The notes under the pieces are model-generated. The model did no database searches. It had not been told where the DNA came from and was given only the letters and a program-made list of their open reading frames with translations. Source: a bacterium (lineage in GTDB: Bacteria > Patescibacteriota > Microgenomatia > Levybacterales > UBA12049). Taken from it: a stretch of DNA of 51,389 bases. This document shows positions 9,593-35,207 of the stretch, one piece after another; position 1 is the stretch's first letter, and the number at the start of each line of letters is the position of its first letter. The stretch is from NCBI GenBank assembly GCA_021791545.1, contig JAJYWL010000003.1, positions 1 to 51,389 on the forward strand, read 5' to 3'. Position numbers and translations under genes: made by a program.

Positions 9593-11953
9593 ATGGAACG
9601 ATATATCCCAATAATACCAATTAGAGACGGAATAATATTCCCTAATACAGACTCAGTATTAACCTTCGGAAGACCAAAGAGTCTTGCTGCTCTTGAATCA
9701 TCTTTTACCCAGGAAAGAGTTGTTGCTTTTGTTCTACAGAAAAACTCAAGGATCAATGACCCCGAACCAACAGATCTATACACCGTTGGAACCCTTTGCC
9801 ATATAGAGAGAATGATCAAGGCAGACGGGGAAATAAATGCACAGGTTAGAGGTCTTTCAAGAATCCAAGTTTTAGAGTACGACGAAAGCACCGCTTTTCT
9901 TATGGGAAGAGTACTTGAAATAGAAGAAACACCAGATGATTCGGCAGAAGTAAAAGCTTTATGCAACCACCTTACAAACGAATTTAGAAGAGCAATGAAT
10001 TTGGGAAAATTCGTAGATTTCTTGGTCTTTATGAATATAATGTCCGAGAATACCCCTTCACAGCTTGCAGATTTGGTTTCCTCAGTACTTGATCTTAAAC
10101 CTGCAGAGAAACAAGTTCTTCTCGAAGAATTGGACGTAAAGAAAAGACTTGAGAAAGTAATAGATTACCTTGCAAAAGAAATAAAGGTATTAGAGCTTGA
10201 GAAAAAGATAGCCTCAAAAACACAGGAAAGATTTGAAAAAGGCGCAAGGGAAGTAATGTTAAGGGAAAGATTAAAGACCATCGAGAAAGAGCTTGGGGAA
10301 AATGATGAGGATAGCGAAACAAGAGAACTTCTTCTTAAGTTAAGAGATGCGGGAATGCCAAAGGATACGGAAGAAAAGGCAAGAAAAGAAATAAAGAAAC
10401 TTTCCCAAATGAATCAGTTCAATCCTGAAGCAGGATATATAAGAAACTACCTTGATTGGCTTCTGGCCCTTCCTTGGAGCAAGGAAAGTAAGAGTAATAT
10501 AGATATAGCAGTAGCAGAGAAGATTCTTAACCAGGATCATTTCGGCCTGGATAAGGTAAAAGAAAGAATCGTAGAGTATCTTGCCGTCAATAAGCTTGCC
10601 GGAAAAATGAAGGGACCGATACTTTGCTTTGTTGGACCGCCCGGCGTAGGTAAAACATCTCTTGGAAAATCCATAGCAAGAGCCCTTGACAGGAAATTCA
10701 TCAAAGTTTCTTTGGGAGGAATAAGAGACGAGGCAGAAATAAGAGGACATAGAAGAACATATGTAGGAGCTTTACCCGGAAGAATTATTCAGGGAATAAA
10801 AGATGCAGGAACAAGAAATCCTGTATTCATGCTTGATGAAATCGATAAGGTAGGAGCAGATTTCAGGGGAGATCCTTCTTCCGCCTTACTCGAAGCACTT
10901 GATCCCGAACAGAATAACGTTTTTTCAGACCATTATCTTGAGGTTCCTTTTGATCTTTCCGACGTAATGTTTGTCACGACGGCAAACGTTTTGGACACAA
11001 TTCCTCCTGCTCTTAGAGATAGGCTCGAAATAATCCAATTCTCGGGCTATACCCAGGAAGAAAAATTCAGGATTACAAAAGGATTTCTTCTTAAGAAAGA
11101 AATGGAAAGTCACGGACTTAAAGACAGTCAGGTACAGATTACGGATAAGGCAATAAGATTTGTCATAGACCATTACACGAGAGAAGCCGGAGTAAGAGGT
11201 CTTGAGAGACAGGTAGCTACGATTCTTAGAAAAGTAGCGAAGATGGTAGCAGAAGGAAAGAAAGGAAAAGTTGTTGTCACGGAGAAGAATGTGACAAAAT
11301 TCCTTGGCCCCACGAGACTTGGTTCGACATTGATTGAAAAACAGGACGAAGTCGGAATGTCCACGGGACTTGCATGGACCGAAGCAGGCGGAGACATACT
11401 ATTTATAGAAGTCGCTCTTATGCCGGGTAAAGGCAGTCTCATCTTAACCGGACAGCTTGGAGATGTAATGAAGGAATCTTGTCAGGCTGCTCTTTCATAT
11501 ATAAGGGCTAGGGCACAGCAAATGGGGATAAGCGAAAAGTTCTTCCAGAAGATGGATATACATGTTCATGTGCCCGAAGGAGCTGTTCCCAAAGACGGTC
11601 CTTCCGCAGGAACTGCAATAACAACTGCAATAGTTTCGGCTTTGACCAAAATTCCTGTCAATAGAACCGTAGGTATGACAGGAGAAGTAACGTTAAGAGG
11701 AAGAGTACTTGAAATAGGTGGTATAAAAGAAAAAGTAATTGCGGCCCATAGAGCGGGACTTAAGACGGTAATTATGCCAAAAGAGAACAAGAAAGATTTG
11801 GAAGATGTTCCTAAAGAAGTACTAAAGAAAATGAAGTTTGTCTTTGTAGAGCATATGGATGAAGTGCTTAATATTGCTCTAACAAAACCTCTTAAACAGA
11901 AGGAATATCAAAGACCTGTTCTTTACGCAGCAAATCCTCAGCAGGCTGATTAA
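9593..11953 (+). CDS. lon: ATP-dependent Lon protease (LonA type)
   Basis: LON N-domain, Walker A GPPGVGKTS, Walker B FMLDEIDK, and a Ser-Lys protease domain PKDGPSAGTA. The ORF track starts at a TTG at 9569, but the first ATG (MERYIPIIPIRDG) at 9593 fits better with the promoter at 9542-9570. Confidence 0.95.
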   Translation: MERYIPIIPIRDGIIFPNTDSVLTFGRPKSLAALESSFTQERVVAFVLQKNSRINDPEPTDLYTVGTLCHIERMIKADGEINAQVRGLSRIQVLEYDESTAFLMGRVLEIEETPDDSAEVKALCNHLTNEFRRAMNLGKFVDFLVFMNIMSENTPSQLADLVSSVLDLKPAEKQVLLEELDVKKRLEKVIDYLAKEIKVLELEKKIASKTQERFEKGAREVMLRERLKTIEKELGENDEDSETRELLLKLRDAGMPKDTEEKARKEIKKLSQMNQFNPEAGYIRNYLDWLLALPWSKESKSNIDIAVAEKILNQDHFGLDKVKERIVEYLAVNKLAGKMKGPILCFVGPPGVGKTSLGKSIARALDRKFIKVSLGGIRDEAEIRGHRRTYVGALPGRIIQGIKDAGTRNPVFMLDEIDKVGADFRGDPSSALLEALDPEQNNVFSDHYLEVPFDLSDVMFVTTANVLDTIPPALRDRLEIIQFSGYTQEEKFRITKGFLLKKEMESHGLKDSQVQITDKAIRFVIDHYTREAGVRGLERQVATILRKVAKMVAEGKKGKVVVTEKNVTKFLGPTRLGSTLIEKQDEVGMSTGLAWTEAGGDILFIEVALMPGKGSLILTGQLGDVMKESCQAALSYIRARAQQMGISEKFFQKMDIHVHVPEGAVPKDGPSAGTAITTAIVSALTKIPVNRTVGMTGEVTLRGRVLEIGGIKEKVIAAHRAGLKTVIMPKENKKDLEDVPKEVLKKMKFVFVEHMDEVLNIALTKPLKQKEYQRPVLYAANPQQAD

Positions 11954-22129: not shown

Positions 22130-22317
22130 AAATATATCTTCGTGTAGTTTGAATTTAAAGGGATTTCAGCAGTATTAGGCAAAACAAAGATTTTGTGTTA
22201 AGTACCCTCAACGCAAATACCATCGAATCATTTTTACCCTGGATTTTTAATCTAATGGAAGCTTATGGCTATAAACCAAAAGACCAATCCAGTGATGATG
22301 TATAATGTGCTGAGTAT

Positions 22318-22641
22318 ATGAATGATAATACAAACATAAAAATATTACCAGAAGACAAGATAAATCTTACTCAAGACCAAAAGAATTTAATTGAGCTAGC
22401 TTTTATAAAGCAGGTTCCACCGGAAGATGCTAGGTTTATGGAGAAAGTGCAAAAGGAAGCAAAAAGTGATACAGATTCTTTTACTCGATTAAGTCAGTAT
22501 TTTAATAATAAATACGGATTAGATTTTGGGACGATTTACCTGGCAGCTATCATGGGAGGAAGAGAAAAATACAACGAAACAGTTCAATTAATTGAGAAAT
22601 CAAAAGCCGAATCAAGGATTGCTAGTCTTCAAAAGAACTAA
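22318..22641 (+). CDS. hypothetical protein
   Basis: 107-aa ORF with a charged, helical-looking sequence and no recognisable motif. Confidence 0.4.
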   Translation: MNDNTNIKILPEDKINLTQDQKNLIELAFIKQVPPEDARFMEKVQKEAKSDTDSFTRLSQYFNNKYGLDFGTIYLAAIMGGREKYNETVQLIEKSKAESRIASLQKN

Positions 22642-22886
22642 GAGGGGAGTATTTCCGAAGCATCTATTTTTAATACCTTAATTATTTTATGTAAATTCTT
22701 TATCGTCAGGTTTATTTCTCCCCGCTCAATTTTTGCATAATAATTACCTTTACCTTTGATCTCTGCAAGTTTTGCAACTTCTTCTTGAGTTAGGCCTAAT
22801 TTTTCTCGAGCTGTTTTAAACTTACTGCTTAGTTCTTTATTAATGTTTTCTGAAGGTCTAGTAGTCATATAAGGATAGTATATCAC
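22638..22886 (-). CDS. XRE-family helix-turn-helix transcriptional regulator
   Basis: 82 aa. The HTH_3-like segment is LGLTQEEVAKLAEIKGKGNYYAKIERGEINLTIKNLHKIIKVL. It is divergent from the DGR target gene. Confidence 0.8.
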   Translation of the reverse strand: MIYYPYMTTRPSENINKELSSKFKTAREKLGLTQEEVAKLAEIKGKGNYYAKIERGEINLTIKNLHKIIKVLKIDASEILPS

Positions 22887-22891
22887 GTTTT

Positions 22892-22900
22892 TGCTATAAT
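22892..22900 (+). promoter_or_regulatory. extended -10 promoter element (TGcTATAAT) for the DGR target gene
   Basis: TGCTATAAT ends 17 nt upstream of the ATG at 22918. There is no SD in the short leader. Confidence 0.45.
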
Positions 22901-22917
22901 AATCCTGTATTGATATT

Positions 22918-24780
22918 ATGGAAAACGTGAGCCCAGAAAACCAATTACTTAAAAATAAATATGTTTTACATAAACAACCTGAAGTAGATGTTGCCGCAAG
23001 AAGAACACTTGCTCACACAGACGAGAAAGTTCCTCAAGATCCATTAGCTCGTATTCAAAATTATTTAGATAGGTTTCACGAAATTACAGACAGAACTGAC
23101 CCAAGAGACAGAGAGCATGGATTAGATGCAGCCAAAAGACTGTTATACCGAAAATATATCATAAAACCAGATGAGATCCCCGAAGGATATTTTGATAATC
23201 AGCGCCGCCTAGCAAGAGAATTAGGACATGGTGATATTGAGATAACTCCTCAAGCAAGAGAACAACTGACTGAAGTAATTATTGCAGATCAAAAATCAAG
23301 TTTGGATCTATGGGTTGATTACCTCTCATCTTCTGATGCTCCATATTCAGACGGACTTAAGTATTACACTCTACGAAGTGTTCTTTCAATGGGTTCTTAT
23401 GATAAAGAAAAAGGGAAATTCAGCGAAAGAGCAAAAGGAACAGTTAAGCCGTTTCCTGATTTAAATAGAGAAGCCTTAGCTTACGTCCTTGACGCACTAA
23501 GTAAGAAATATAAGGGGTATGATGTTGATTTATCAAAGATTGAGGAAACAGATAGGCCTCAATTTGAAAAACTGCTAGCTTCTGAAAACTTCCCAAAACT
23601 TTACGCTTGGGCGATTGATAAAGTTACCCCCGCAACTGCCGAAGAGTTGTCTGCAACAAATGGTAAATGGGTAAAATACGACCAAAATTCTGATCATATG
23701 CCACTTGTAAAGAGCTTGGAAGGCCACGGAACAGGTTGGTGTACAGCAGGAGAATCAACAGCAGAGGCTCAACTTCAAGGCGGAGACTTCTATGTATATT
23801 ATTCAATGGATAAAGCTGGAGAACCAACTGTACCAAGAATTGCAATTAGAATGCAGGAGGACAGGATTGCAGAAGTAAGAGGAATTGCACCAAATCAAAA
23901 CCTTGATGCAGGAGTTGAGCAAATTGTCGAAGATAAACTAAAGGAATTTCCAGATGGTGAGCTTTACAAGAAAAGGGTGGCTGATATGAAAACACTTACT
24001 GATATTGAAAATAAAGTAAGTGAAGGAGGCAATCTAACTTCCCAGGAGTTACGATTTCTCTATGAAATAGATTCATCAATTGAAGGTTTTGGTTATCAAA
24101 GAGATCCCCGTATTGAAGAACTTCGAAGTGGTAGAAATACAGACCAAGATATGTTAACAATTTTTGATTGTGAACCTTCAGAAATTGCCCACAATACAAA
24201 TCAAATCAATGAAAGTACTAAAGCCTATGTGGGTCCGCTTGAAGCAGGTATATTTACTACCCTGCAAAGATACGGTATTGAACATATTTACACAAAATTC
24301 CCAGAAGGAAGAATAAAATTTGATTCTGTAGCTGTAGGAGGTAAGGATTTAAATCAACTGCAAAGAGAGTTAAGTGAAAACAAAATTAATATTTCTTCCT
24401 ACGCTGAATATATGATGAGAACTGGTCTAAGTCTAACCGCAGGACAGAGTCAAAATCTTGATATAGTACGGTTAAAAGTTGGTGATTTAGGACTACCTGA
24501 CGACTATCCTACAACAGACAAAATATTTAAAAGAGCAAAAGAGCTTGGTCTAGAACTTTGTCCGGCAGACCTTGGACCAAATTACAGACTTCAATATAAA
24601 GATCAACCTATGGATGACTGGTTTTATGTTGGTATGAAGCCAATCGCCGACTCGGATGGCGATCCCTATGTCTTCCTGCTTTCTCGCAGTGTTGGCGGGT
24701 TGTGGTTGAGCTACCGTTGGGCTGTTCCAGACGACGAGTGGAATCCGGAGTACGAGTTTGTTTTCTCCCTTCGCAAGTAA
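22918..24780 (+). CDS. DGR variable (target) protein: 620 aa, no signal peptide, unrecognised N-terminal ~570 aa, C-terminal variable region
   Basis: The C-terminal 46 codons align with the TR and differ almost only at TR adenines. The TR-encoded peptide ...NNNWANPDNKWNPKNEFVFSLRK resembles the Asn-rich ...NPDNR..N.GFR ends of C-type-lectin-fold DGR targets (recollection). Confidence 0.85.
   Translation: MENVSPENQLLKNKYVLHKQPEVDVAARRTLAHTDEKVPQDPLARIQNYLDRFHEITDRTDPRDREHGLDAAKRLLYRKYIIKPDEIPEGYFDNQRRLARELGHGDIEITPQAREQLTEVIIADQKSSLDLWVDYLSSSDAPYSDGLKYYTLRSVLSMGSYDKEKGKFSERAKGTVKPFPDLNREALAYVLDALSKKYKGYDVDLSKIEETDRPQFEKLLASENFPKLYAWAIDKVTPATAEELSATNGKWVKYDQNSDHMPLVKSLEGHGTGWCTAGESTAEAQLQGGDFYVYYSMDKAGEPTVPRIAIRMQEDRIAEVRGIAPNQNLDAGVEQIVEDKLKEFPDGELYKKRVADMKTLTDIENKVSEGGNLTSQELRFLYEIDSSIEGFGYQRDPRIEELRSGRNTDQDMLTIFDCEPSEIAHNTNQINESTKAYVGPLEAGIFTTLQRYGIEHIYTKFPEGRIKFDSVAVGGKDLNQLQRELSENKINISSYAEYMMRTGLSLTAGQSQNLDIVRLKVGDLGLPDDYPTTDKIFKRAKELGLELCPADLGPNYRLQYKDQPMDDWFYVGMKPIADSDGDPYVFLLSRSVGGLWLSYRWAVPDDEWNPEYEFVFSLRK
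24641..24780 (+). repeat. DGR variable region (VR), including an IMH-like 3' end
   Basis: It aligns colinearly with 25102-25241 (offset 461). Codon-by-codon comparison shows 23 TR-A to VR-N substitutions plus one T-to-C (VR 24768) near the 3' end, where IMH and IMH* are expected to differ. Confidence 0.9.
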
Positions 24781-25052
24781 TTGAAATTTAATTTCTTTGT
24801 CACTTCGTTTTTTTTGAGTCTTTGTTTCTTTGATACTTTGATTTTTTCGTCCAGAAATTTTTGATATACTTTTTACAGATTGGTTTAATTGAACGGTTAC
24901 GGCTTTTCAAAACCTCTCCGGCATAAATATATTGAGAATGTAAGTTACTACGGTTTCTTACAGAGGATATATTTATTGTTTCTAAAAAAAGATAAACTTG
25001 GTGTTACGTGCTGGTTGATTTTATATCACAAATAAAATACAGCTTATTTTCT

Positions 25053-25068
25053 TCCGCCAATTGGCGGA
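25053..25068. other. 16-bp perfect GC-rich palindrome about 35 nt upstream of the TR
   Basis: TCCGCCAATTGGCGGA sits in an otherwise AT-rich spacer. It could be an RNA hairpin or a protein-binding site. Confidence 0.5.
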
Positions 25069-25101
25069 TTAAAAGAGCAGTGAACTAGATGGCACGTTTC
25101 A

Positions 25102-25241
25102 CGAAAACCGACTCGAATGGCAATCCAAATGTCTTCAAGCTTAATCGCAATGATGACGGGTTGTGGTTGAACAACAATTGGGCTAATCCAGACAACAAGT
25201 GGAATCCGAAGAACGAGTTTGTTTTCTCTCTTCGAAAGAAG
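25102..25241 (+). repeat. DGR template repeat (TR)
   Basis: Adenine-rich (AAC/AAT/AAG codons) invariant copy of the VR. The ORF-track entry 25089-25292 is just the open frame inherited from the VR. The 5' boundary is uncertain by a few nt. Confidence 0.9.
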
Positions 25242-25248
25242 GTCTTTT

Positions 25249-25278
25249 CCACACTTTCAATAGGTGTGGTTTTTCTTT
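25249..25278 (+). terminator. intrinsic-terminator-like hairpin immediately 3' of the TR
   Basis: CCACAC-tttcaatag-GTGTGG followed by TTTTTCTTT on the plus strand. The avd stop codon (25257-25259) lies in the loop. Confidence 0.5.
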
Positions 25279-25580
25279 ATTGGATTATCTAAGCTTTTCT
25301 TCCAACCCCAAAGCATTTTACCGATTTCATCAAGCCTTGTAGCTATCTCCTCGTATTGTTTATGAGAAATGAGTTTGCCTTCCCACGCTACAGAAACAAA
25401 ATATTTAAGAATATCTAATTTAGAAATACATTCAGATAGCTTGTGTGATTTCTGCTCTTTTTCGCTAAAATATGTAGTGTATGAAAGTTCTAAGAGATCA
25501 AGGAATATATTCTCAATCCTTATGCCGATTGCGTAGCGTGAAGATTTTGGAATATGCGGCAAGATATTAAGCCATATCAA
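25257..25580 (-). CDS. avd: DGR accessory variability determinant (Avd, four-helix-bundle protein); N-terminally truncated as called, and probably extends to the ATG at 25654 through a frameshift in the (TC)9 tract
   Basis: LPHIPKSSRYAIGIRIENIFLDLLEL...LISHKQYEEIATRLDEIGKMLWGW matches the Avd/TIGR02436-like pattern. The called start is a TTG only 10 aa before the IPK motif, whereas Bordetella bAvd has about 35 aa there. The frame stays open upstream to 25655 but contains no start codon. Confidence 0.75.
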   Translation of the reverse strand: MIWLNILPHIPKSSRYAIGIRIENIFLDLLELSYTTYFSEKEQKSHKLSECISKLDILKYFVSVAWEGKLISHKQYEEIATRLDEIGKMLWGWKKSLDNPIKKNHTY

Positions 25581-25619
25581 ATATCCCTCTTTGATACGAC
25601 AGAGGATTGTAGGATTTTC

Positions 25620-25638
25620 GAGAGAGAGAGAGAGAGAG
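25620..25638. repeat. (GA)9G dinucleotide microsatellite in the avd 5' region and the avd-RT divergent intergenic region
   Basis: gagagagagagagagagag read directly. On the minus strand this is (TC)n encoding SLSLSL. Confidence 0.95.
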
Positions 25639-25678
25639 TAGAAGGTCGTGTCATATTAAATATAATGATATCATCTCT

Positions 25679-26620
25679 TTGGAAAATCTGCTTATCTCCT
25701 GGCAAGAATTCCTAAAAGGCAAAAGAAAACGTAAAGACGTTTTGGAATTTTCTGTCAGATTCATGGACAATATTCTTAAACTCAAAAATGAATTAAAGGG
25801 CAAGCAGTATAGACATGGAACATATTATGCTTTTAAAATTAATGATCCAAAACCCCGTGATATTCATAAAGCAAAAGTTAGAGATAGAATTGTTCATCAC
25901 GCAATCTACAGATTATTATATCCCTACTTTGATAAAAAATTCGTTTATGATTCATATTCGTGCAGGGTTACTAAGGGAACTCACAGGGCAATTAATCGCT
26001 TTAGAACTTTAAGTAGAAAGGTATCTAAAAATGACACAAAAACTGTTTGGATTTTAAAATGCGACATTAGAAAATTCTTCGCCAACATAAACCATGAAGT
26101 TCTAAAAAACATTCTAAGAAAACACATTATTGACGATGAAATTATGTGGCTTTTGGAAAATGTCATTGACAGTTTTTATACTAGAGATTATTTAAACATC
26201 GGGTTGCCGTTAGGTAACGTTACAAGTCAGATATTTATTAATATCTACATGAATGAGCTTGATCAATTCGTTAAAAGAGAATTAAAAGTTAAATATTTTA
26301 TTCGCTATGCTGACGATTTCGTGATCTTAAATACTGATAAGAAATACCTAGCTAATCTTATTCCCAAAGTATCTGAATTTCTAGAAGAAGAGCTAAAACT
26401 TTCTCTTAATCCGAAAAAAGTTTCAATTACAACGCTTTCATCCGGTGTTGATTTTTTAGGCTGGGTAAATTTTCCTCATCATAGGGTTTTAAGAACTACT
26501 GCAAAGCGAAGGATGTTTAAGAAATTGAAGATAAATCAATCAAAAGAAACAATGGCTTCATATATAGGACTTTTGAAGCATGGGAATACTTATAAGCTTA
26601 TGAAATTAATTCAGGATTAG
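25679..26620 (+). CDS. DGR-type reverse transcriptase
   Basis: 313 aa. RT motif 4 LPLGNVTSQIFINIYMNELD (the DGR-typical I/LGxxxSQ) and catalytic YADD (IRYADDFVIL). It has a TTG start, and no ATG is in frame upstream (stop at 25610-25612). Confidence 0.9.
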   Translation: MENLLISWQEFLKGKRKRKDVLEFSVRFMDNILKLKNELKGKQYRHGTYYAFKINDPKPRDIHKAKVRDRIVHHAIYRLLYPYFDKKFVYDSYSCRVTKGTHRAINRFRTLSRKVSKNDTKTVWILKCDIRKFFANINHEVLKNILRKHIIDDEIMWLLENVIDSFYTRDYLNIGLPLGNVTSQIFINIYMNELDQFVKRELKVKYFIRYADDFVILNTDKKYLANLIPKVSEFLEEELKLSLNPKKVSITTLSSGVDFLGWVNFPHHRVLRTTAKRRMFKKLKINQSKETMASYIGLLKHGNTYKLMKLIQD

Positions 26621-27076
26621 TGCTTTTCTAACTTTTTCTGCATATGGTAATCTTTCTTCTGGAGTTGTTGATTTCTTGTCTAATATGTTTTTGTGCAACT
26701 CATCGTTTGAATATCTTGGGAAAACATGAAGATGATAATGAAAAGCGTGCTGATTTCCAGCTGGTTCATTATTCTGTAAAGTTGTAATTCCTTCTGCCTT
26801 GTAACCAGCTTTTATGGCAAGTGCAATTTTTTGAGCAACTTTATGTATTCTGGTTGCATATTCTAATGGAAGGTCATAAATATTTTCAAAATGTTCATTT
26901 GGAACAATTATTACATGTCCAGGATTATTTCCAATAAAAAAAGAGTTTATAAAAGCAGTAACTAATTCATCTTTGTAGACAATGTCGCTTTGTGTGATTA
27001 AAGTATCTTTACTTTCAATTCCCATAATAGCTGGACAAATTGGACATTTATAATCTTGTGATGCATGACTGTACAT
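26606..27076 (-). CDS. HIT-family (histidine triad) nucleotide hydrolase/transferase
   Basis: 156 aa with the histidine triad HAFHYHLHVFPR. It overlaps the RT 3' end by 15 nt in convergent orientation. Confidence 0.85.
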   Translation of the reverse strand: MYSHASQDYKCPICPAIMGIESKDTLITQSDIVYKDELVTAFINSFFIGNNPGHVIIVPNEHFENIYDLPLEYATRIHKVAQKIALAIKAGYKAEGITTLQNNEPAGNQHAFHYHLHVFPRYSNDELHKNILDKKSTTPEERLPYAEKVRKALILN

Positions 27077-27127
27077 AAAAAGATTCCTAAAAGATTAAGC
27101 CTCTCAGATTGCAAGGGTATATTCACT

Positions 27128-27763
27128 TTACTTGCTCTTTAAATAAAAAGTGAGATTTGCGTTATCAGGAGCTTTTCCTGAAATCGAAAATACTCCATCC
27201 GAGATTTGTTTTATTGTTACTCCGTCTGCGGAGGATTCCTGTATTTGTTTTCCCCTTAACTCATTTACTTTTCGCCAAGGTTGACCAAAAATAAAATCAT
27301 CATAGCTTCCATCGAACTTATCTACACCTAACATATTTTGAATTGAATCTCGTTCGGGAATTTGAGTATCTACGTAGAATCCAATTCTGTCAACATCACA
27401 AAGCCTTATTGATTGCGAGCTGTTTCTGAATTCTGCTACATGTAAGCTTACATCTCTTATTCTTGTATAACCCTGCGCTTGAAGCGTTGCTTCTTCTATT
27501 TCTTTTGCTTTTATTTCCCTTATTTCCCAGTGTGTTTTTGACCAGTCAGGTAAGTCTGGGGTAAGTACTCTATAAGTTTGTTTACCAGTCATTATATCCT
27601 TAGTAATTTTAGGAAAACCATGATTTCCTTTATTTGGGCTATCCCATAAGCTATATTCTATTTCTTCATCTGGGCCACTAACTTTAATATAGCCTGCGTT
27701 CTCTAATTTAGCGGAGAGTAATTCAAATCTTGAAACTGATTGTGGTTTTTCTTCTCCTCCCAT
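27128..27763 (-). CDS. hypothetical protein
   Basis: 211-aa ORF, soluble, with no recognisable motif. Confidence 0.45.
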   Translation of the reverse strand: MGGEEKPQSVSRFELLSAKLENAGYIKVSGPDEEIEYSLWDSPNKGNHGFPKITKDIMTGKQTYRVLTPDLPDWSKTHWEIREIKAKEIEEATLQAQGYTRIRDVSLHVAEFRNSSQSIRLCDVDRIGFYVDTQIPERDSIQNMLGVDKFDGSYDDFIFGQPWRKVNELRGKQIQESSADGVTIKQISDGVFSISGKAPDNANLTFYLKSK

Positions 27764-27816
27764 AAAATGATTATAACAAAACTCTATTTAGGCCTTGCTT
27801 CTCTCTTTCGCAAGGT

Positions 27817-28245
27817 TTATACAAAAGAAAAGATTAAACCAATTCCCATAATAGCTAAGCTAATAAATATTTTAGGATTAAGTTTTTCTCCCAAAATAAA
27901 ATAGGCAAAGACACTTATTAGCATTGGAGACAGTAATGCAAAAAGTGATTGTTGATCTAGCGGCATATATTTATATCCCTTAATTCCTAGCCAAAAAGCC
28001 ACACCATTAATGAGTCCAACTATAAGTAATAAAATAATCAAATTTTTCCCATTTTGTAAATTTAATGAAAGTGAATGCTCGAAAAATATACTCATGAATA
28101 ATGAGAGTAGAAATAAGGAAAGCATAGAAATTGTCATTACCGTGAATGGAGGAATTGACACATTTGCCTTTTTTAGTAAGGGACTAAGTAAAGCATAAAG
28201 GATTGTTGATAAAGAGACAATTCCAATTCCTAAGATTTTATTCAT
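27817..28245 (-). CDS. half-size EamA/DMT-superfamily membrane protein
   Basis: 142 aa with 4-5 TM helices. EamA-like N-terminus GIVSLSTILYALLSPLLK. Confidence 0.6.
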   Translation of the reverse strand: MNKILGIGIVSLSTILYALLSPLLKKANVSIPPFTVMTISMLSLFLLSLFMSIFFEHSLSLNLQNGKNLIILLLIVGLINGVAFWLGIKGYKYMPLDQQSLFALLSPMLISVFAYFILGEKLNPKIFISLAIMGIGLIFSFV

Positions 28246-28780
28246 AAGTTTCCTTTTTTTGTTTTAAAGTAATTAGCAGTGGAGAAAAGAAGAAGCATGT
28301 TTTTAATTCCTGAATACTATTTAAAATAACTTCTTTAGGTAATTTAATTCTTTCTCCTTTCCAAGGGTCTATAATATACATATATTCATCATCTTGTTCT
28401 TCGACAATTATAAAATGAGGTGCATGGGTGTATTTATTAATTTCATATTGGTCAATATATAAAATGAATGGGTTTTTCTGATTATGAATAAATCTTTCGT
28501 TGATAGCTTGATGAGCTATTTTTAATCGATGATCATTATTAAACTTACTTAGATAATTAGCGTAAGGTTTAATATCAACAAAAAGATCTATTTCTAAATC
28601 ATAGCTTTCTATAAATGAGAGAATTACATTAAATGTATAATAAGTGTCTCTGTTCTTAGTTAAGCCCTTGATTAATAAATCCAGTTCTTTTTCTTTACTT
28701 GATTTAATGCCAGAAATTCCAAATAAGCATACAGGTAGACACCCCTCGAAAGTTTCTTGCTTAATAATTTGTATTGACAT
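28238..28780 (-). CDS. putative papain-fold (C39-like) cysteine peptidase
   Basis: 180 aa. Gln7 and Cys14 (QETFEGC) have papain-like Q-x6-C spacing, followed later by HFIIVEE...IIDPW (His and Asp candidates). It overlaps the downstream DMT gene by 8 nt. Confidence 0.4.
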   Translation of the reverse strand: MSIQIIKQETFEGCLPVCLFGISGIKSSKEKELDLLIKGLTKNRDTYYTFNVILSFIESYDLEIDLFVDIKPYANYLSKFNNDHRLKIAHQAINERFIHNQKNPFILYIDQYEINKYTHAPHFIIVEEQDDEYMYIIDPWKGERIKLPKEVILNSIQELKTCFFFSPLLITLKQKKETYE

Positions 28781-28898
28781 ATTTGAGGATTATATACCCT
28801 TATAATTTATATATATTTATATATACAATTTAGCTTCAAAAATGACTAAAAAAGACTATTGACAATAAAAATAAAGGAAGTAGGAATCGGAAAATTGG

Positions 28899-29468
28899 TT
28901 ATCTGTTCCAAGGATAAATTGGTTGCCTATTTTGATTTTTATTTACTACAATTCCAACTATGCCTGTTTGTGTAAAAGTAAGCGTTCCCGCTTCAGTGAT
29001 TCTTTCTCTCCATAGCCCATCCTCAATTGTTCCTTCCAACATTTCAAATTCATACTTTTTATCTTCAAGAACTAATTCTTTTGGTCCACGAAAAGGAAGT
29101 TCCGGGGTTACTTTCTTAAGGGCTTCTTTCAAAAATCCAAATGTTTCCTTTGCTCTATCCTCATGTCCTTCAGTTTGTCCGTGTCCACCATATTGCATTG
29201 TCCAAGCTGGTTCCCCTTTATAATAAACAGTTGTCATACCAGGTGCTCTAAAATATCCAGTATAACTATCCCTTAACATCCAATCTCCTTGTGGTTCATC
29301 TGGCGAAGGAAATTGTAATTCTTTATAACCTGGGCGTTGCGCTGGAACTTCTTTACCTTCTCCTGCCCAAGTTGCAAGATTTGCCTTGACAATAAATTGA
29401 GATAAATCAGCTAACCAAGCTTGTTTTCTAACTTCCTGCTCGGTAGTTGGCTTTGTTTCTATACTCAT
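28899..29468 (-). CDS. conserved hypothetical protein (DUF5680-like, from memory of the family pattern)
   Basis: 189 aa. The segments FIVKANLATWAGEG...GYKELQF...DSYTGYFRAPGMTTVYYKGEPAWTMQYGG resemble DUF5680. Confidence 0.45.
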   Translation of the reverse strand: MSIETKPTTEQEVRKQAWLADLSQFIVKANLATWAGEGKEVPAQRPGYKELQFPSPDEPQGDWMLRDSYTGYFRAPGMTTVYYKGEPAWTMQYGGHGQTEGHEDRAKETFGFLKEALKKVTPELPFRGPKELVLEDKKYEFEMLEGTIEDGLWRERITEAGTLTFTQTGIVGIVVNKNQNRQPIYPWNR

Positions 29469-29497
29469 GCAGTGAAATTATATCATTCGAATTATTT

Positions 29498-30277
29498 TTA
29501 TTCCACTTTATCCCAAATATTCTCTATACTTGTATTTTGTAATTTACCCTTTGTTATCAAGCGAAAAACAATCTCTTCATCTTCTGCTTGTTCTCTGATC
29601 TGTTTCTTAAGATATCTTTCTGATTTCTCATCCGGTGCAACAAGAATAACTTCGGGGAATTTAGTATTGGTGTTATCTTGCCACTCATCACCTTGGAAAT
29701 ATTCAATGTATTGACTAACTCTTTCTATTATCCAAAACCTCGGTGATTGAGGATCAAAAATTTCTAAGAAATACCTTTTTGTTCTTTTGCTCGTACCTTT
29801 AATAGAAAAGTAAGCATGAGGCAGGTTATCTGGTAAATGGTCAATATTTTCAAGATCCATTTGGGTATAAAAATCTAAGTTGGTTTTATCTTTTTTGGAT
29901 TGTTTTTGTAAAGATAGGTAAATATCTGCAATCAGAAGGCATCTATCTCGAAAAGTTTGGGATCTGGTTTTTTCTTTATATATTCTTTTAATTATTCTTT
30001 CTTCAACTTCTTTTTCTCTAAGATATGGAATAGATCCTTTATCTAGACAGTAGATTGATGGAATCCCTGCAAATTCTTTTGAATAAATCCTAAAGATATA
30101 CCCTCTTTTAGTTAGGTTATTTAACCATCTGATTACTTTCTCTTTATATTTATGATTTAATATTGTTTGAACTTGTGGTCTATTTAAGAATCTGAAACGA
30201 AGTAGATTATCGATAATTTCTTTTTCCCTGTTTTTAAGTTTGTAAGCTATTTCTTCCATAATATTTTCTCTCTCCAT
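29498..30277 (-). CDS. replication-relaxation (Replic_Relax) family protein
   Basis: 259 aa. The N-terminal winged-helix-like pattern IIDNLLRFRFLNRPQVQTIL...VIRWLNNLTKRGYIFRI...PSIYCLDKGS is typical of PF13814-type proteins found next to T4CP genes. Confidence 0.6.
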   Translation of the reverse strand: MERENIMEEIAYKLKNREKEIIDNLLRFRFLNRPQVQTILNHKYKEKVIRWLNNLTKRGYIFRIYSKEFAGIPSIYCLDKGSIPYLREKEVEERIIKRIYKEKTRSQTFRDRCLLIADIYLSLQKQSKKDKTNLDFYTQMDLENIDHLPDNLPHAYFSIKGTSKRTKRYFLEIFDPQSPRFWIIERVSQYIEYFQGDEWQDNTNTKFPEVILVAPDEKSERYLKKQIREQAEDEEIVFRLITKGKLQNTSIENIWDKVE

Positions 30278-30333
30278 ATATTTATATATGGGAAAGAAGA
30301 GAAAGATTTAAAACATTTTAGCCTTAAACAAGA

Positions 30334-30360
30334 CAAAAATTGGTAGACATAGGTGTCTAC
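30334..30360 (-). terminator. hairpin with T-run overlapping the stop codon of the T4CP-like gene
   Basis: The minus strand reads GTAGACA-ccta-TGTCTAC-ca-ATTTTTG. Confidence 0.45.
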
Positions 30361-33158
30361 TGTTTTTGGTTCTTGGCTAGTTTTTTAATTGACGCATTTT
30401 TGTTATCAGTTTTAGCTACTTTTGTTTGCATTTTGAGTCCGGTGTACAAAATGGCGTAATTTTTCCTCGATGCTTCAATTAGGCTTTCTATTAATTGTTT
30501 GTCTTTATTAAGTTGTATTGGTATTGTTTCCCCGGAGAATGGTTCTTCAGGGTTTGTTGCTGACATTTTAATGTAGAATTTAAATCTTGGAAGATTAGCA
30601 AGATCCTCTTTGGTAATATTTGGCATAAATTGTGGTGCCATCATTTGTTCATCAATTGGAGAAGAAGTTGCAAAACAAATTACAGTACCTGTATTAGCTA
30701 AGATGACATTAACTACACTTCTATCTTGTTGTTGGGAGGTAGATTGTTCAGCAAGCGTAAGTCTTAGGCCAAACTTTCTACCACCTGATAATATTCTTGT
30801 AAATGAAGTGGTGGCAAAGTTTTGGAACTCATCAACGTAAAGATAGAAAGGCTTTCTGTTTGTTACTTCTTCTCTTGCTCGTCTTAAAGCTGCCTGGTGA
30901 ATTTTAGCAAGAACCATTAGGCCTAAGACTTGAGCTGTATCTTCTCCTATCTTTCCTTCAGATAGGTTACATATTAATATTTTTCCCTCATCTAGTATCT
31001 TATTAAAATCTATAGTTGATTTCTCCTGTTCAATTATTCTTCTAGCAGTTGGAGAGAAAAGAAACCTTCCTACTTTTGCGGTAACTCCAGCTGCCATTTT
31101 AACAGCCTGATATGCTCCGGCTTTTCCAAACTCATCTTTCCAGAAGTTTTTAAGCGTTTCATCACTAAGTGTATTTACCACCTTATTCCTAAAGCTTTTA
31201 TCATTTAAAAGGCTATATAGTGTAAATAGCGTCCGATTGGGAACAGCAAATGAGGTATAGATTGTGTTTCTTAAGATATATTCAATTCTATGAGCATTAA
31301 CGTATTCTTCTTTTGAAAATATTCTTCTAAATACAGAGATTACGCTTTCCGCAACCAGTTCTTTTTCTAGTTCCAAATCGTCTCCACTTATATTATCCGG
31401 AAGCTCTAAAAGATTAATGCCAATCGGATATTTAAGATCAAAAGGGTTAAAGTAAATTAAGTCGTTAATCCTATTCTTTGGAACTATTGATAACAAATCT
31501 TCTGCCAGATCACCGTGTGGATCAATAACAGCAACACCTCTTTGCTTTTGAATATCTTCTTTTGCCATCTGAAAGATTACTGTTGATTTACCGCTACCTG
31601 TTTTTCCTAAAAGATAGACATGTTTTGCTCTTTCCTCATCGGTTAGACCGATGTCAGTTACCAAATTTCCATAACTGTTTTTAGCAAAGACAACATCAAG
31701 TTTTTTGCTTGTTTTTAACGTTAATGGCGCAGGAAAGTCAGGGCTTAAAGACTTAACCATATCCTCGGTTTTAGTCGTATTGGTATATGGAAAATGGAAA
31801 AGATCTGATATTTCAGAAGATGAGAGAATTAAGTTTTTACCTAACATTGGGTTAGATAAAACTCTTTGTTTAAATTGAGTCTCTCTACTTTTAAATGAAG
31901 AGCCAATAAATGAGCTTTTTGTGGTTAATGATTGATAACTACTACTCATTAAACCAAATGAAGCTAAAAGACCTGAGACTCTTGTTTCAAATTCTTCTTT
32001 ATCTTTTCCCAAGACTAAGATTCGTATTGTTGATTCAAACAACTGTTGATCAATCTTTTCTTTAACAACTGTTTTTAATTCCTGTTCGTAAGGGTTAAGT
32101 AGTTCTTGAGGAATAACAGGATCTTTTCGGGTAGCAAACGGAGTATTATCTAAATTGTTATCCATAATTGCTGAAGGCATACTGATTACAAACATAAAAG
32201 CTAATTTAAACAAAAGAAATATTCCTTTTACTCCAAGCCATAAAAGAGAAATTACAGGAAGTGATACTAGTTCTTGAAAAGGGTTTTTCTGTAAACTTTC
32301 AGTTAAAGGTAATCCTTTATACATTCTGTATCTAAGCTTTCTCGTTTCGTTGACTATTTTTCCATGAGTTGGGGATAATACCGGTGTTACAACCATTTGA
32401 AATGCAATTAACTCTTTAGGATCAAGATTTGTCATATTACCTGTTAAATATGAGATTGGGTCGTGTTCTGAAAGAGTTTTCTGATTATTAAGAGGAAGTG
32501 CAAAATGACTTGAAAGTTTAAGTTCCACTATTCCTAATGTCTGATCGGTACCTAAATTAAAATCTTTATTAAGATAATCATCTATTTCTTTTATCTTTAT
32601 TCCGGGAAGGTAGGATAAAAGATTTCGCTTTAAGACATCAATGTTTTTAGAACTTGCAATTAAAAGATACCTGATTCCTTCATTTTTTGTAGATACTATT
32701 TCTAAAGAATATTGCTTCTTAATTTGAGTTAATGTTTCAATTAAGGTTTTTTGACGGGCAAGCGTATGAAAAAGAGTATATAGCTGTTTTGTGGCATAGG
32801 CAGATTTACTAGTATCTGAGGGAAAAGTTAACTCCAAGAACTTCTTTTCTTCTTTAGTCTTATTAAACTTACTTAAAACAAATGGAATTAATATTCTAAT
32901 AAGTGAGATTATGGATTTAACAAAGAAATATAAAAACAAGAGAAAGATTATTGGTCCAATCAGTATGAGGATTGTTGTTTGCATCGGAGAGAGAGACGGA
33001 AGAGGTAAGCTCATAAAGAAATGGTAAATTGCAAGTTTCCAGTGAATTGGTAACGGTAAAGCAAAGAGAATGAGAAGATAGGTATGTCCTACAGACAATG
33101 TATGCGTTTGTAACTGATGAATTAGTTGTAACTCCTGTTGGTAGTCACTATTATTCAT
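30357..33158 (-). CDS. type IV secretion coupling-protein-like (TraD/VirD4/TraG family) membrane ATPase
   Basis: 933 aa. N-terminal TM helices, Walker A LLGKTGSGKST, Walker B with the TraG-D_C-like segment FYLYVDEFQNFATTSFTRILSGGRKFGLRLTLAEQS. Confidence 0.75.
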   Translation of the reverse strand: MNNSDYQQELQLIHQLQTHTLSVGHTYLLILFALPLPIHWKLAIYHFFMSLPLPSLSPMQTTILILIGPIIFLLFLYFFVKSIISLIRILIPFVLSKFNKTKEEKKFLELTFPSDTSKSAYATKQLYTLFHTLARQKTLIETLTQIKKQYSLEIVSTKNEGIRYLLIASSKNIDVLKRNLLSYLPGIKIKEIDDYLNKDFNLGTDQTLGIVELKLSSHFALPLNNQKTLSEHDPISYLTGNMTNLDPKELIAFQMVVTPVLSPTHGKIVNETRKLRYRMYKGLPLTESLQKNPFQELVSLPVISLLWLGVKGIFLLFKLAFMFVISMPSAIMDNNLDNTPFATRKDPVIPQELLNPYEQELKTVVKEKIDQQLFESTIRILVLGKDKEEFETRVSGLLASFGLMSSSYQSLTTKSSFIGSSFKSRETQFKQRVLSNPMLGKNLILSSSEISDLFHFPYTNTTKTEDMVKSLSPDFPAPLTLKTSKKLDVVFAKNSYGNLVTDIGLTDEERAKHVYLLGKTGSGKSTVIFQMAKEDIQKQRGVAVIDPHGDLAEDLLSIVPKNRINDLIYFNPFDLKYPIGINLLELPDNISGDDLELEKELVAESVISVFRRIFSKEEYVNAHRIEYILRNTIYTSFAVPNRTLFTLYSLLNDKSFRNKVVNTLSDETLKNFWKDEFGKAGAYQAVKMAAGVTAKVGRFLFSPTARRIIEQEKSTIDFNKILDEGKILICNLSEGKIGEDTAQVLGLMVLAKIHQAALRRAREEVTNRKPFYLYVDEFQNFATTSFTRILSGGRKFGLRLTLAEQSTSQQQDRSVVNVILANTGTVICFATSSPIDEQMMAPQFMPNITKEDLANLPRFKFYIKMSATNPEEPFSGETIPIQLNKDKQLIESLIEASRKNYAILYTGLKMQTKVAKTDNKNASIKKLAKNQKQ

Positions 33159-33242
33159 AGCCCTTTTAGAGGGCAGGATCTTCTAAGTGGCCTAGAGTCT
33201 ATCATTGAAGCTAAAAGAAGTCAACTGGAATCATTTTAGTAC

Positions 33243-33270
33243 TTGACAGCAGCCTCAAGATGGCTATATA
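33243..33270 (+). promoter_or_regulatory. candidate promoter for the small ORF and recombinase operon
   Basis: TTGACA (33243-33248), 16 nt, TATATA (33265-33270). It is followed by ACTGTC-N8-GACAGT and a third ACAGTC copy. Confidence 0.5.
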
Positions 33271-33306
33271 CTGTCTATATATGGACAGTTAATAATACAG
33301 TCTAGA

Positions 33307-33621
33307 ATGAAAAACTTAACTACTACTAATTTAGCTACGATTACAAATACTACTCCACAAGAAAATAATCCTCGTTTTGATGTCAGCCGTTTTCCACAGT
33401 CAGATAACATTATTAATGCGCTTAATGAAATGTTTCCGGAGCAATCATTTGAGGATAAAACGCTGCAGAAGGTTAAGGAAATATTAGGCACGAATTATTC
33501 TACGGAAGAAGTAAAATCCCTTATTGCCTCATTTGAATATCTTATTGAGAATTGGTTAGAAGAGTACGAAAGAAAAATCTTTAATAATAAAACTGTGAAA
33601 GAACTACTACATTCATTTTAA
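33307..33621 (+). CDS. hypothetical protein co-transcribed with the serine recombinase
   Basis: 104-aa ORF that ends 4 nt before the recombinase start. No motif was recognised. Confidence 0.45.
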   Translation: MKNLTTTNLATITNTTPQENNPRFDVSRFPQSDNIINALNEMFPEQSFEDKTLQKVKEILGTNYSTEEVKSLIASFEYLIENWLEEYERKIFNNKTVKELLHSF

Positions 33622-33625
33622 AAAT

Positions 33626-35143
33626 ATGTTTACAGACGTATTACAACAAGGTAGAAAGGCAGTCATTTATCTAAGGGTGTCCAGCGAAGAACAAGTTGAA
33701 AATTTTTCGCTTAGTACCCAGGAAGAAATATGCCGAAGAGAAGCAACCAGGCGCCAATTTGAAGTCGTCGAGGTTTTTCGGGAAGAGGGAAGATCAGCTA
33801 AAACCATCACCGGTAGGCCGACTTTGATTAAGCTTTTGGAATTTTGTCGAAAGAATCGTCGGACTGTCGATGCGGTATTTGTCTATCGGGTAGATAGATT
33901 ATCCCGCCAAACAGCAGATTATCTGGCGATTAGGAAAAAACTGGCTGAATATGGCATTACTTTAATATCGGCAACCGAACCAACAGGGAATAGCCCAACA
34001 GACAAACTAATTGAAACAATGCTTGCAGGATTTGCCCAGATGGATAATGATGTTCGAAGCGAAAGATCTAGAAATGGACTAAGAGCCAGATTTTTATCCG
34101 GTTTATGTATTGCAAAAGTACCAATTGGATATCTAATTAAAGATGGTTATGCGATTAAGGACGAGGTTTCTTTCGACAAAATGAAAAAAGCGTGGAATTT
34201 GGTGGCAACTGGCACTAAAAGCATGTCTGAGATGGCAGAAATTATGAATAAATGGGGTCTTCGTAAGTTTGTTTTCGGAAAAGAACACATGTTAAGAGCA
34301 CAAACTGTAGACAGAATATTTCGTAACAAGTTTTACGCAGGTTTTATTACTTCGGAAAAATACAAAGAGGAAGCAAAAGGGCAACATATACCAATGATAA
34401 CTGAAGAACAATTTTATAAAGTTCAGGCGATTATAGATGGAAGAAATCGTTGCGGAATGACTGTTGGGAAAAGACTTAAAGACAATCCGGATTTTCCCCT
34501 AAGAAGATCGATAAAGTGCGGTAGGTGTGGAGGAAATTTATCAGGAGGTTGGAGTAAGGGAAGATCAAAAAGATACGCCTATTATATTTGCAAAGGTCGT
34601 TGTGGGGCACCATCTATAAAAGTACAAGTACTGAATGATTCATTGATTGAATTTTTACATTCGATCACACCGCCTAAGAAAAAACTTGAGGTATTTATAA
34701 TGCTTCTTAGGAAAGGTTTTAATCAAAGTTTTAATTCTTTGATGGTAAAAAGAGAAAAAGCAGAGTCAGAATTATTGTTGCAAAAAAGATTAATGGGGGT
34801 TCTTGTTGAAAAAAATTTGATGGGAACTTATACAGATGAGGTTTATAAAGAACAAAGCAAAATTTACGAGGATAGAATAACTGCTGCTGAACTAGTTTTA
34901 GGAAAAACTGTATATGACAAGTATAATTTTACCGATATTGAAAAGTTTATGAGAGATAAATTTAAAGATCTGGGCAAGACTTATCTTAAATCAGAGCCGG
35001 GCGTGCGTAGGGTACTTCTTGGTTCGATATGTCCCTCTGGGCTTGCCTGGCGATATTCTGGTTTATCGAACCAGCAGTTTAGCCCGCAATATCAAGCTAT
35101 TCTTGATGTTCGAGAAGACGATTTTGCATTGAGTACCGCGTAG
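33626..35143 (+). CDS. large serine recombinase (resolvase/invertase N-domain, recombinase domain, zinc ribbon)
   Basis: 505 aa. The catalytic-Ser region is AVIYLRVSSEEQ. RVDRLSRQ is also present. The zinc-ribbon-like segment is CGRCGGNLSG...YYICKGRCG, followed by a C-terminal coiled coil. Confidence 0.9.
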   Translation: MFTDVLQQGRKAVIYLRVSSEEQVENFSLSTQEEICRREATRRQFEVVEVFREEGRSAKTITGRPTLIKLLEFCRKNRRTVDAVFVYRVDRLSRQTADYLAIRKKLAEYGITLISATEPTGNSPTDKLIETMLAGFAQMDNDVRSERSRNGLRARFLSGLCIAKVPIGYLIKDGYAIKDEVSFDKMKKAWNLVATGTKSMSEMAEIMNKWGLRKFVFGKEHMLRAQTVDRIFRNKFYAGFITSEKYKEEAKGQHIPMITEEQFYKVQAIIDGRNRCGMTVGKRLKDNPDFPLRRSIKCGRCGGNLSGGWSKGRSKRYAYYICKGRCGAPSIKVQVLNDSLIEFLHSITPPKKKLEVFIMLLRKGFNQSFNSLMVKREKAESELLLQKRLMGVLVEKNLMGTYTDEVYKEQSKIYEDRITAAELVLGKTVYDKYNFTDIEKFMRDKFKDLGKTYLKSEPGVRRVLLGSICPSGLAWRYSGLSNQQFSPQYQAILDVREDDFALSTA

Positions 35144-35207
35144 GGGAGTTGAACCCCTGATTTTCGGGATGAGAACCCGATGTCCTAGGCCACTAGACGA
35201 ACGCGGC
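35134..35207 (-). tRNA. tRNA-Glu (anticodon CUC); CCA not encoded
   Basis: Hand-folded cloverleaf: acceptor GCCGCGT/ACGCGGT (G1-U72 wobble), D-arm GTCT/GGAC, anticodon stem TCGGG/CCCGA with loop TTCTCAT, 5-nt variable loop, T-arm AGGGG-TTCAACT-CCCCT, discriminator A. Total 74 nt. Confidence 0.85.

Follow-up and report, generated by a model that had tools for sequence, protein, structure and literature searches.

What kind of element links a protein gene, an imperfect copy of its 3′ end and a reverse transcriptase (RT) gene in a genome of the candidate phyla radiation (CPR, or Patescibacteria), and does it add anything to the elements of its class already described? The locus occupies positions 22,918 to 26,620 of contig JAJYWL010000003.1 (assembly GCA_021791545.1, Levybacterales), of which we analysed positions 1 to 51,389 on the forward strand (hereafter the window). 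An earlier note, made from the sequence of the window, had described it as a complete diversity-generating retroelement (DGR), in which a variable region (VR) and a template region (TR) diverge specifically at adenines. We find that the locus is very probably an intact DGR of the Patescibacteria clade, with the order target (carrying the VR), TR, avd on the opposite strand, and RT, and that its diversification is directed at the final 44 codons of a cytoplasmic protein of 620 aa. The qualification as complete holds for the parts present. It is a typical member of a described DGR clade and requires no new category; several observations made at the level of the clade (a leader RNA, its pairing with the segment that follows the TR, a fixed VR/TR marker, and a repeat tract before the RT gene) matter more than the locus as a further DGR.

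Adenine-directed differences between the variable and template regions

In a gapless base-by-base comparison, the VR (24646-24777, plus strand, 44 codons) and the TR (25107-25238, plus strand), offset by 461 nt, differ at 24 positions of a 132-nt core, and the TR carries an adenine at 23 of them (11 A>G, 5 A>C, and 7 A>T). The sole mismatch outside the TR adenines is a T>C change (VR 24768, TR 25229). Given 41 adenines among the 132 TR bases, the hypergeometric probability that 23 or more of 24 mismatches would coincide with them is 1.4e-13. The recount and its coordinates agree exactly with those of the earlier note. The colinear repeats then proposed (24641-24780 and 25102-25241) were recovered with the same offset, although homology is scant in the first 5 nt (24641-24645); a repeat finder reports one long direct repeat (family D1, 24647-24777 against 25108-25238) with 82% identity and a spacing of 461. 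Searched across the 51-kb window, the TR has no match beyond its one VR. The same bias characterizes our comparison set, which comprises about 100 related loci overall: in 24 clean VR/TR pairs, 468 of the 505 mismatches are at TR adenines.

The target gene (22918-24780, plus strand) contains the VR as codons 577-620 of its 620-aa open reading frame (ORF), in frame and without a stop codon. Most TR adenines (38 of 41) are found at codon positions 1-2, the TR codons including 12 AAY and 4 AAG, and the encoded amino acid is altered in 17 of the 44 codons between TR and VR (N>D/Y/S/R/V, K>L/E, D>V/G, and T>A), which bears out the diversification of N/K/D-rich codons that had been proposed. The four AAG codons are able to become TAG, a minor deviation from the stop-free AAY design. 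A 67-aa ORF that covers the TR (25089-25292) is merely the TR read in the frame of the VR.

Adenine-directed changes are confined to 24646-24751, the last one being at 24751 itself. One of the 23 adenine mismatches, A>C at VR 24774, lies beyond this limit and corresponds to a difference found in almost all relatives, whose VR ends in ...GCAAG where the TR ends in ...GAAAG (or GCCAG). Because this VR/TR difference is fixed in nearly all related loci, we regard it as a marker of the type that distinguishes the initiation of mutagenic homing (IMH) sequence from its counterpart IMH*, and not as a product of mutagenesis. The last 26 nt of the VR (24752-24777, plus strand), which contain both this marker and the T>C change at 24768, already suspected of being an IMH/IMH* difference, thus seem to behave like an IMH/IMH* pair. 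Directly 3′ of the target stop codon lies a tandem pair of 33-nt units (24781-24846, 73% alike) rich in CTTTGA-like motifs. CTTAGA/TTTGA motifs likewise recur 3′ of the VR in relatives, often encoding a short C-terminal tail.

The reverse transcriptase and its accessory protein

The RT gene (25679-26620, plus strand) encodes 313 aa from a TTG codon, with an RVT_1 domain (Pfam) and the two motifs listed in the earlier note, LGNVTSQ (26210-26230), which has the LGxxxSQ form of DGR RTs, and YADD (26306-26317). By PDB sequence scores, on which the assignment is based, the solved structure that matches it best is that of the Bordetella DGR RT, bRT (8ub7, E = 1.5e-41, 146 bits). The alignment spans residues 2-283 (282 residues) and places LGNVTSQ opposite IGSLTSQ and YADD opposite YMDD. 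The best group II intron RT reaches 2.5e-22 and 83 bits, and retron RTs are weaker. Between TR and RT, on the minus strand, a 107-aa accessory gene, avd (25257-25580), points towards the TR and away from the RT. Its product matches the Pfam family PF22296 bAvd (7e-18, 65.5 bits, cut-off 40) and, under the cut-off of 80, the NCBIfam model DivGenRetAVD (8.6e-19, 67.8 bits); among PDB sequences it matched only designed coiled coils. The adjoining ORF is thus Avd-like as proposed, with the correction that it is read from the minus strand. The exact RT protein was found on a single contig only, one already in our set, and no record was found of the exact Avd protein.

Could the VR and TR be an ordinary diverged duplication, and the RT one of another class (group II intron, retron, or defence RT)? 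The best NCBIfam match of the RT is a group II intron RT/maturase model (148 bits), and PADLOC lists many defence-associated RT (DRT) models. However, the NCBIfam score is far below the cut-off of 300 bits, with no DGR-RT model among the NCBIfam matches, bRT leads the other solved relatives by about 20 orders of magnitude, no RNA family of group II introns or retrons was found with Rfam, Avd is present, and the mismatches are concentrated on TR adenines (23 of 24) instead of being spread evenly over the four bases. The adenine-specific spectrum, its P value, and the bRT match refute this explanation, whose remaining probability we consider negligible.

A target protein from a large Patescibacteria family

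The target is a soluble protein with an N-terminal domain of unknown function (about 417 aa) and a C-terminal domain of about 200 aa that bears the VR. A family alignment reveals an invariant GHGTGWCTAGESTA motif in the N-terminal domain and, in the C-terminal one, the scaffold P.VF.L.R..GLWL...WA.P...W.P..EFVFSLRK, in which the columns that vary are those of TR-adenine codons. The family includes more than 3,790 close homologues, forms 7,320 clusters at 50% identity, and has relatives in 488 GTDB species representatives; its named members are nearly all Patescibacteria. The target has no match in Pfam, NCBIfam, or PADLOC, nor among PDB sequences with either the single protein or a 30-sequence profile, and contains neither a transmembrane or hydrophobic segment nor a signal peptide. 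A PcfJ-like target (category g of Wu et al.) was considered and found no support, the N-terminal 417 aa being without a Pfam match even at E ≤ 1. A model of the full-length protein (pLDDT 78, pTM 0.53) retrieved nothing significant with Foldseek. The last 203 residues, modelled separately with a pLDDT of 93.7, have as best PDB fold matches only C-type lectin domains, all of them weak (E 0.07-0.4, TM 0.26-0.45); a C-type lectin fold for the C-terminal domain is, on these models, plausible but not established.

RT, Avd, or TR are found nearby in 35 of 80 genome loci encoding a target homologue. When the count is restricted to loci whose homologue has 3 kb or more of flank on either side, DGR parts occur within 3 kb at 15 of 35, so the family is not obligatorily linked to DGRs, at least not in cis. 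With its thousands of members, an invariant HGTGWC motif, and about 40% of the well-flanked loci linked to a DGR, this family represents a large unexplained part of CPR biology. Many remote relatives (among loci L001-L080) share only the N-terminal ~430 aa, joined to other C-termini. At one locus (L016), a 231-nt stretch over the target 3′ end is present twice with 100% identity (7657-7887 and 10763-10993, about 3.1 kb apart), both copies upstream of one avd-RT pair; this repeat may correspond to a duplicated target gene.

A structured leader RNA upstream of the template

About 240 nt upstream of the TR are conserved in all related modules, including the inverted ones. They contain an extended -10 promoter-like box for the TR RNA (TGATATACT, 24862-24870, plus strand), conserved as TTTTTGnTATAAT in all of these modules. 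A two-hexamer promoter scan did not detect the box, so that its assignment comes from conservation only. The leader proper extends over about 230 nt (24878-25106, plus strand), for which RNAalifold predicts, on 23 genome loci, five helices (47 of their 57 pairs show compensatory double changes): P1 (24890-24897/24902-24909), P2 (24924-24933/24966-24975, with an inner stem at 24939-24949/24952-24962), P3 (25001-25012/25091-25102), which closes 4 nt before the TR, P4 (25016-25019/25025-25028), and P5 (25038-25057/25064-25082), all on the plus strand. As a second set, we fetched 80 RT-anchored metagenome loci and located the leader with nhmmer, which found it in nearly all those with enough sequence, including loci with unrelated targets; 22 were aligned. 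The same helices were predicted independently on these 22 loci. The structure derived from the first set, once transferred to the 22-locus alignment, leaves 91% of the cells paired, versus 35-47% for slid partners, with 48 pairs showing double changes (versus 21-27) and a covariation score of 0.657 (versus 0.10-0.16) that none of 500 shuffles reached. The leader is a structured RNA kept by compensatory changes, and it matches no Rfam family even at E ≤ 10. It could be kept for a reason other than reverse transcription, for example as the promoter or untranslated region (UTR) of neighbouring genes, but it stays with the TR in inverted and relocated modules and its compensatory changes are specific to the helices.

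At the other end of the TR, a terminator scan detected a GC-rich hairpin (CCACAC/GTGTGG) followed by a T-run (25249-25279, plus strand), which overlaps the antisense stop codon of avd. Such a hairpin with a T-run is found about 10 nt after the TR in every related module, with compensatory changes in its stems, and the predicted RNA of 405 nt folds better than shuffled sequences (z = -4.5). Between the TR end and this hairpin, a U-rich segment (GUCUUUU, 25242-25248, plus strand) is the predicted partner of an A-rich strand of the leader (AAAAGAU, 24987-24993, plus strand), our candidate primer strand. The two segments covary between loci (AAAAGAAAA/UUUUCUUUU, AAAUGAAA/UUUCAUUU, AAACAU/AUGUUU, and AUAUGC/GCAUAU). 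The duplex is more stable within loci (-4.44 kcal/mol) than with permuted partners (-3.05 ± 0.23 kcal/mol, 0 of 5000), a comparison that is uncorrected for shared ancestry. RNAalifold also proposed a pairing between ACUUG in the leader and CAAGU inside the TR, which we rejected because the two segments do not covary and ACUUG persists in loci whose TRs are unrelated. One metagenome contig (L145) has a second copy of the leader/avd region, 92% identical and about 2.5 kb from the first (L145:1023-1574; L155:2236-2785), which suggests tandem DGR modules in that genome.

These elements can be arranged in a possible mutagenic cycle. An RNA of about 400 nt (about 24878-25279) would be transcribed from the extended -10 promoter, end at the hairpin, and be bound by an RT-Avd complex. 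The A-rich strand 24987-24993, paired with 25242-25248 just 3′ of the TR, would act as a primer in cis. Synthesis of cDNA would then proceed 3′ to 5′ across the TR, with misincorporation opposite adenines, and stop at P3, 4 nt before the TR begins; the cDNA would finally replace the VR up to the IMH-like boundary at 24752-24777.

A repeat tract in front of the reverse transcriptase gene

The avd-RT intergenic region, of about 100 nt, contains a simple-sequence repeat, (GA)9G (25620-25638, plus strand), 41 nt before the annotated RT start. Of the related loci whose sequence extends 150 nt or more beyond the RT on its upstream side (69 in total), 65 have a tract at the equivalent position, in the form of (GA)5-17 in 21, G7-14 in 42, and T16 or T24 in 2. 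Three repeat types at one conserved position suggest selection for a slippage-prone tract. The (GA)9 tract would probably tune or switch the expression of the RT, and perhaps of Avd, through slipped-strand changes in length. Such changes could affect the reading frame, the initiation of translation, or the divergent promoters. Our literature search returned no paper that connects DGR RTs with repeat tracts or phase variation.

Where translation of the RT begins is relevant to this proposal. A conserved RT N-terminus, R-L-R-H-I-Y-N-N-I-I-S-x-E-N-L-L, lies 3′ of the tract, aligns to the bRT residues that precede WENL, and shows codon-like third-position variation across loci. In the window this N-terminus (SRRSCHIKYNDIIS) reaches back past the annotated TTG, at least as far as about 25643-25655, and translation could begin at a near-cognate ATT (25655) that follows AGAAGG. 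A conserved upstream frame of the type AT[N]-GAG-GCG would be continuous with the RT frame if the tract were (GA)10 or (GA)7.

The tract could alternatively be no switch at all, but a neutral microsatellite, a purine-rich element of a ribosome-binding site or promoter, or an assembly artefact. A canonical start codon is located 3-25 nt 3′ of the tract in 36 of the 65 loci, where a 5′-UTR or Shine-Dalgarno-like role is possible; homopolymer lengths are error-prone in short-read assemblies; and only one of three near-identical contig pairs differs in tract length, the other two having equal lengths. On the other side, GA, G, and T repeats of 5-17 units or 7-24 nt occupy the same position in 94% of the loci, a variety that favours selection on repetitiveness over selection on sequence, and in the informative pair (the independent metagenome contigs L145 and L155) a 2-nt difference in the tract, G10 versus G8, is the sole one in 6,771 nt. 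Together with the idea of a leader kept for reasons other than reverse transcription, this explanation is in our judgement rather unlikely.

State of this copy

How firmly can the locus be held to be an intact element that operates as outlined above? Several observations weigh against it. Regarding the mechanism, the priming model is drawn by analogy only. The IMH-like stretch has 46% GC and is not GC-rich, and a conserved hairpin or inverted repeat 3′ of the VR was sought in the window and its relatives, yielding only a weak AT palindrome (24783-24795); inverted repeats or cruciforms downstream of the VR are known from 34% of DGRs and so are not universal (Wu et al., PMC5758913). Regarding the target, the C-type lectin match is weak (E 0.07, TM 0.3-0.45), and the C-terminal model has no match in a viral library. 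Regarding the RT, its frame is open for just 22 codons upstream of TTG 25679 without an in-frame ATG, GTG, or TTG; the window is among the 29 of 65 loci in which no canonical start separates the tract from the conserved N-terminus; the conserved upstream frame, as set by (GA)9, meets a TAG; and differences in poly-G length, such as that between L145 and L155, can be assembly errors. Finally, the VR is identical in four independent assemblies.

This last point comes from the exact target protein, which we found on five contigs. One of them (L081) is identical to the window over 22201-27780 (100% identity), VR, TR, and (GA)9 included; two others (L082 and L083), from other assemblies, match 22201-24798 with the same VR. 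Both of these end 18 nt after the VR stop codon, the Logan contig end being at 24798, which hints that the assembly graph of those samples branches just past the VR.

The identical VR in four assemblies and the problem of the RT start codon raise the possibility that the element is silent at present: a real DGR that is switched off in this population and whose VR preserves the outcome of earlier diversification, either through RT translation that is off in the (GA)9 state or through incipient decay. The TAG met by the upstream frame with (GA)9, which (GA)10 or (GA)7 would place in frame, agrees with such a state, as does the frequency of loss or absence in the family, 20 of the 35 well-flanked target homologues being without a DGR nearby. 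Nevertheless, the three ORFs, the RT catalytic motifs, the 41 TR adenines, the leader helices, and the hairpin are all intact; the near-cognate ATT 25655 or the TTG could still yield protein; and the other assemblies may share the site or the lineage, which makes an identical VR weak evidence. A silent element is a serious possibility, against which we nonetheless lean, and an intact DGR remains our preferred reading of the locus.

Genomic surroundings

Identity between the window and the other contigs starts exactly at 22201, and two of these contigs (L081 and L082) share a different left flank, with a PEGA-domain protein and a sortase that are absent from the window. Position 22201 could be a breakpoint, the edge of an island, or a chimeric join. 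Downstream, the region 28238-35207 encodes a C39-like peptidase, a DUF5680 protein, a Replic_Relax protein (29498-30277), a TraG/VirD4-like ATPase (30357-33158), and a large serine recombinase (33626-35143), whose 3′ end overlaps a tRNA-Glu gene (35133-35207). From the edge at 22201 and these mobile-type genes, the DGR may therefore reside on an integrated element of about 13 kb; att-type repeats sought between 22201 and the end of the recombinase/tRNA-Glu genes amounted only to chance 9-10-mers. The neighbouring ORFs (HTH, HIT, 107-aa, and 211-aa) are not conserved among relatives.

Comparison with known systems

The closest known systems are the other DGRs of CPR bacteria. [quoted passage not shown] (2018, PMC5758913), and the window has the same order, with TR 25107-25238 (+), avd 25257-25580 (-), and RT 25679-26620 (+). 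The locus is consequently new only as a further DGR of a described clade, in keeping with the earlier note, which had not claimed a new class. A Patescibacteria-restricted clade (clade 2) with targets devoid of recognizable domains is also known (Roux et al. 2021, PMC8144416). The window shares with these B3 elements the gene order, the orientation of avd, the host group, a single C-terminal VR, adenine-specific mutagenesis, and a target without a recognizable domain or membrane anchor. In our own set, avd runs opposite to the TR and is oriented away from the RT in each of the 35 DGR-bearing loci, and the module composed of TR, reversed avd, and RT stands downstream of the target, inverted at it, or upstream of it. 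The locus itself differs from other CPR DGRs in nothing: leader, leader/post-TR pairing, fixed marker, and tract are properties of the clade, for none of which we found a description in the papers searched (Paul et al. 2017 not among them).

The DGR mechanism is known almost wholly from one phage element, that of Bordetella BPP-1 (mtd-avd-TR-brt), where the RNA responsible for priming and stopping is downstream of the template. In its spacer RNA, the primer strand (Sp53-56, which pairs just 3′ of the first templated base) comes at the start, followed by the stop-duplex strand (Sp59-70), which pairs with a segment just upstream of the TR, and then by a small stem-loop, adenosines with a single-stranded ring, and a long RT-binding stem (PMC6182149; 10.1101/2023.10.23.563531). 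The window and BPP-1 have in common a bRT-like RT, Avd, adenine-specific mutagenesis, a VR at the target 3′ end, a duplex by the 5′ edge of the TR, and a strand pairing just 3′ of the TR. The CPR leader, moreover, has the order of Sp53-139: A-rich strand, P3, P4, A-rich single strand, and P5. In contrast with Bordetella, avd follows the TR and is encoded on the other strand, the accessory RNA precedes the TR instead of occupying a TR-RT spacer, and the predicted TR RNA is separate from the RT mRNA, ending at a terminator-like hairpin about 10 nt past the TR. The IMH-like region lacks a high GC content, the VR is followed by no conserved cruciform, a cytoplasmic protein of the cell takes the place of the phage tail fibre as target, and the RT is preceded by a repeat tract.

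Since the order of the leader elements mirrors that of the Bordetella spacer but 5′ of the TR, we infer, from this likeness in anatomy, that the CPR DGR RNA may be circularly permuted relative to that of Bordetella. The Bordetella structural work screened 40 nt upstream and 100 nt downstream of TRs and found a stem-loop after the TR in CPR DGRs among others (PMC6182149; 10.1101/2023.10.23.563531); the leader would have lain beyond the range of that screen. The window hairpin 25249-25279 may be the Avd-binding stem-loop just downstream of the TR of Handa et al. (PMC6182149). The only DGR RNA assigned by Weinberg et al. is the RT-10 motif of the Bordetella spacer (PMC5737381). If a large natural clade indeed has equivalent RNA elements upstream of the template, it would provide a second, independent system for studying priming, processivity, and termination, and its abundant leader covariation could guide mutagenesis. 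The combined proposal, that CPR DGRs use a permuted RNA, with docking, priming, and stop in a 5′ leader of about 230 nt and a template apart from the RT, together with a stochastic, tract-driven control of the mutator, the present locus being in an OFF-like (GA)9 state, is one that we put forward tentatively, as somewhat short of an even chance.

For the tract, the relevant comparison is with the contingency loci of Neisseria, Haemophilus, and Campylobacter (PMC5084427, PMC3315296), where, as here, a homopolymer or dinucleotide tract is fixed at the 5′ end or promoter of a gene and differs in length between relatives, in our set once between otherwise identical sequences. If this likeness holds, these DGRs would be phase-variable hypermutation systems, and a repeat-tract switch on the RT would bear on how cells with tiny genomes limit the cost of a targeted mutator. 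Unlike in contingency loci, the gene putatively controlled in CPR DGRs encodes a mutator enzyme and not a surface structure, and the position of the tract relative to the start is not uniform.

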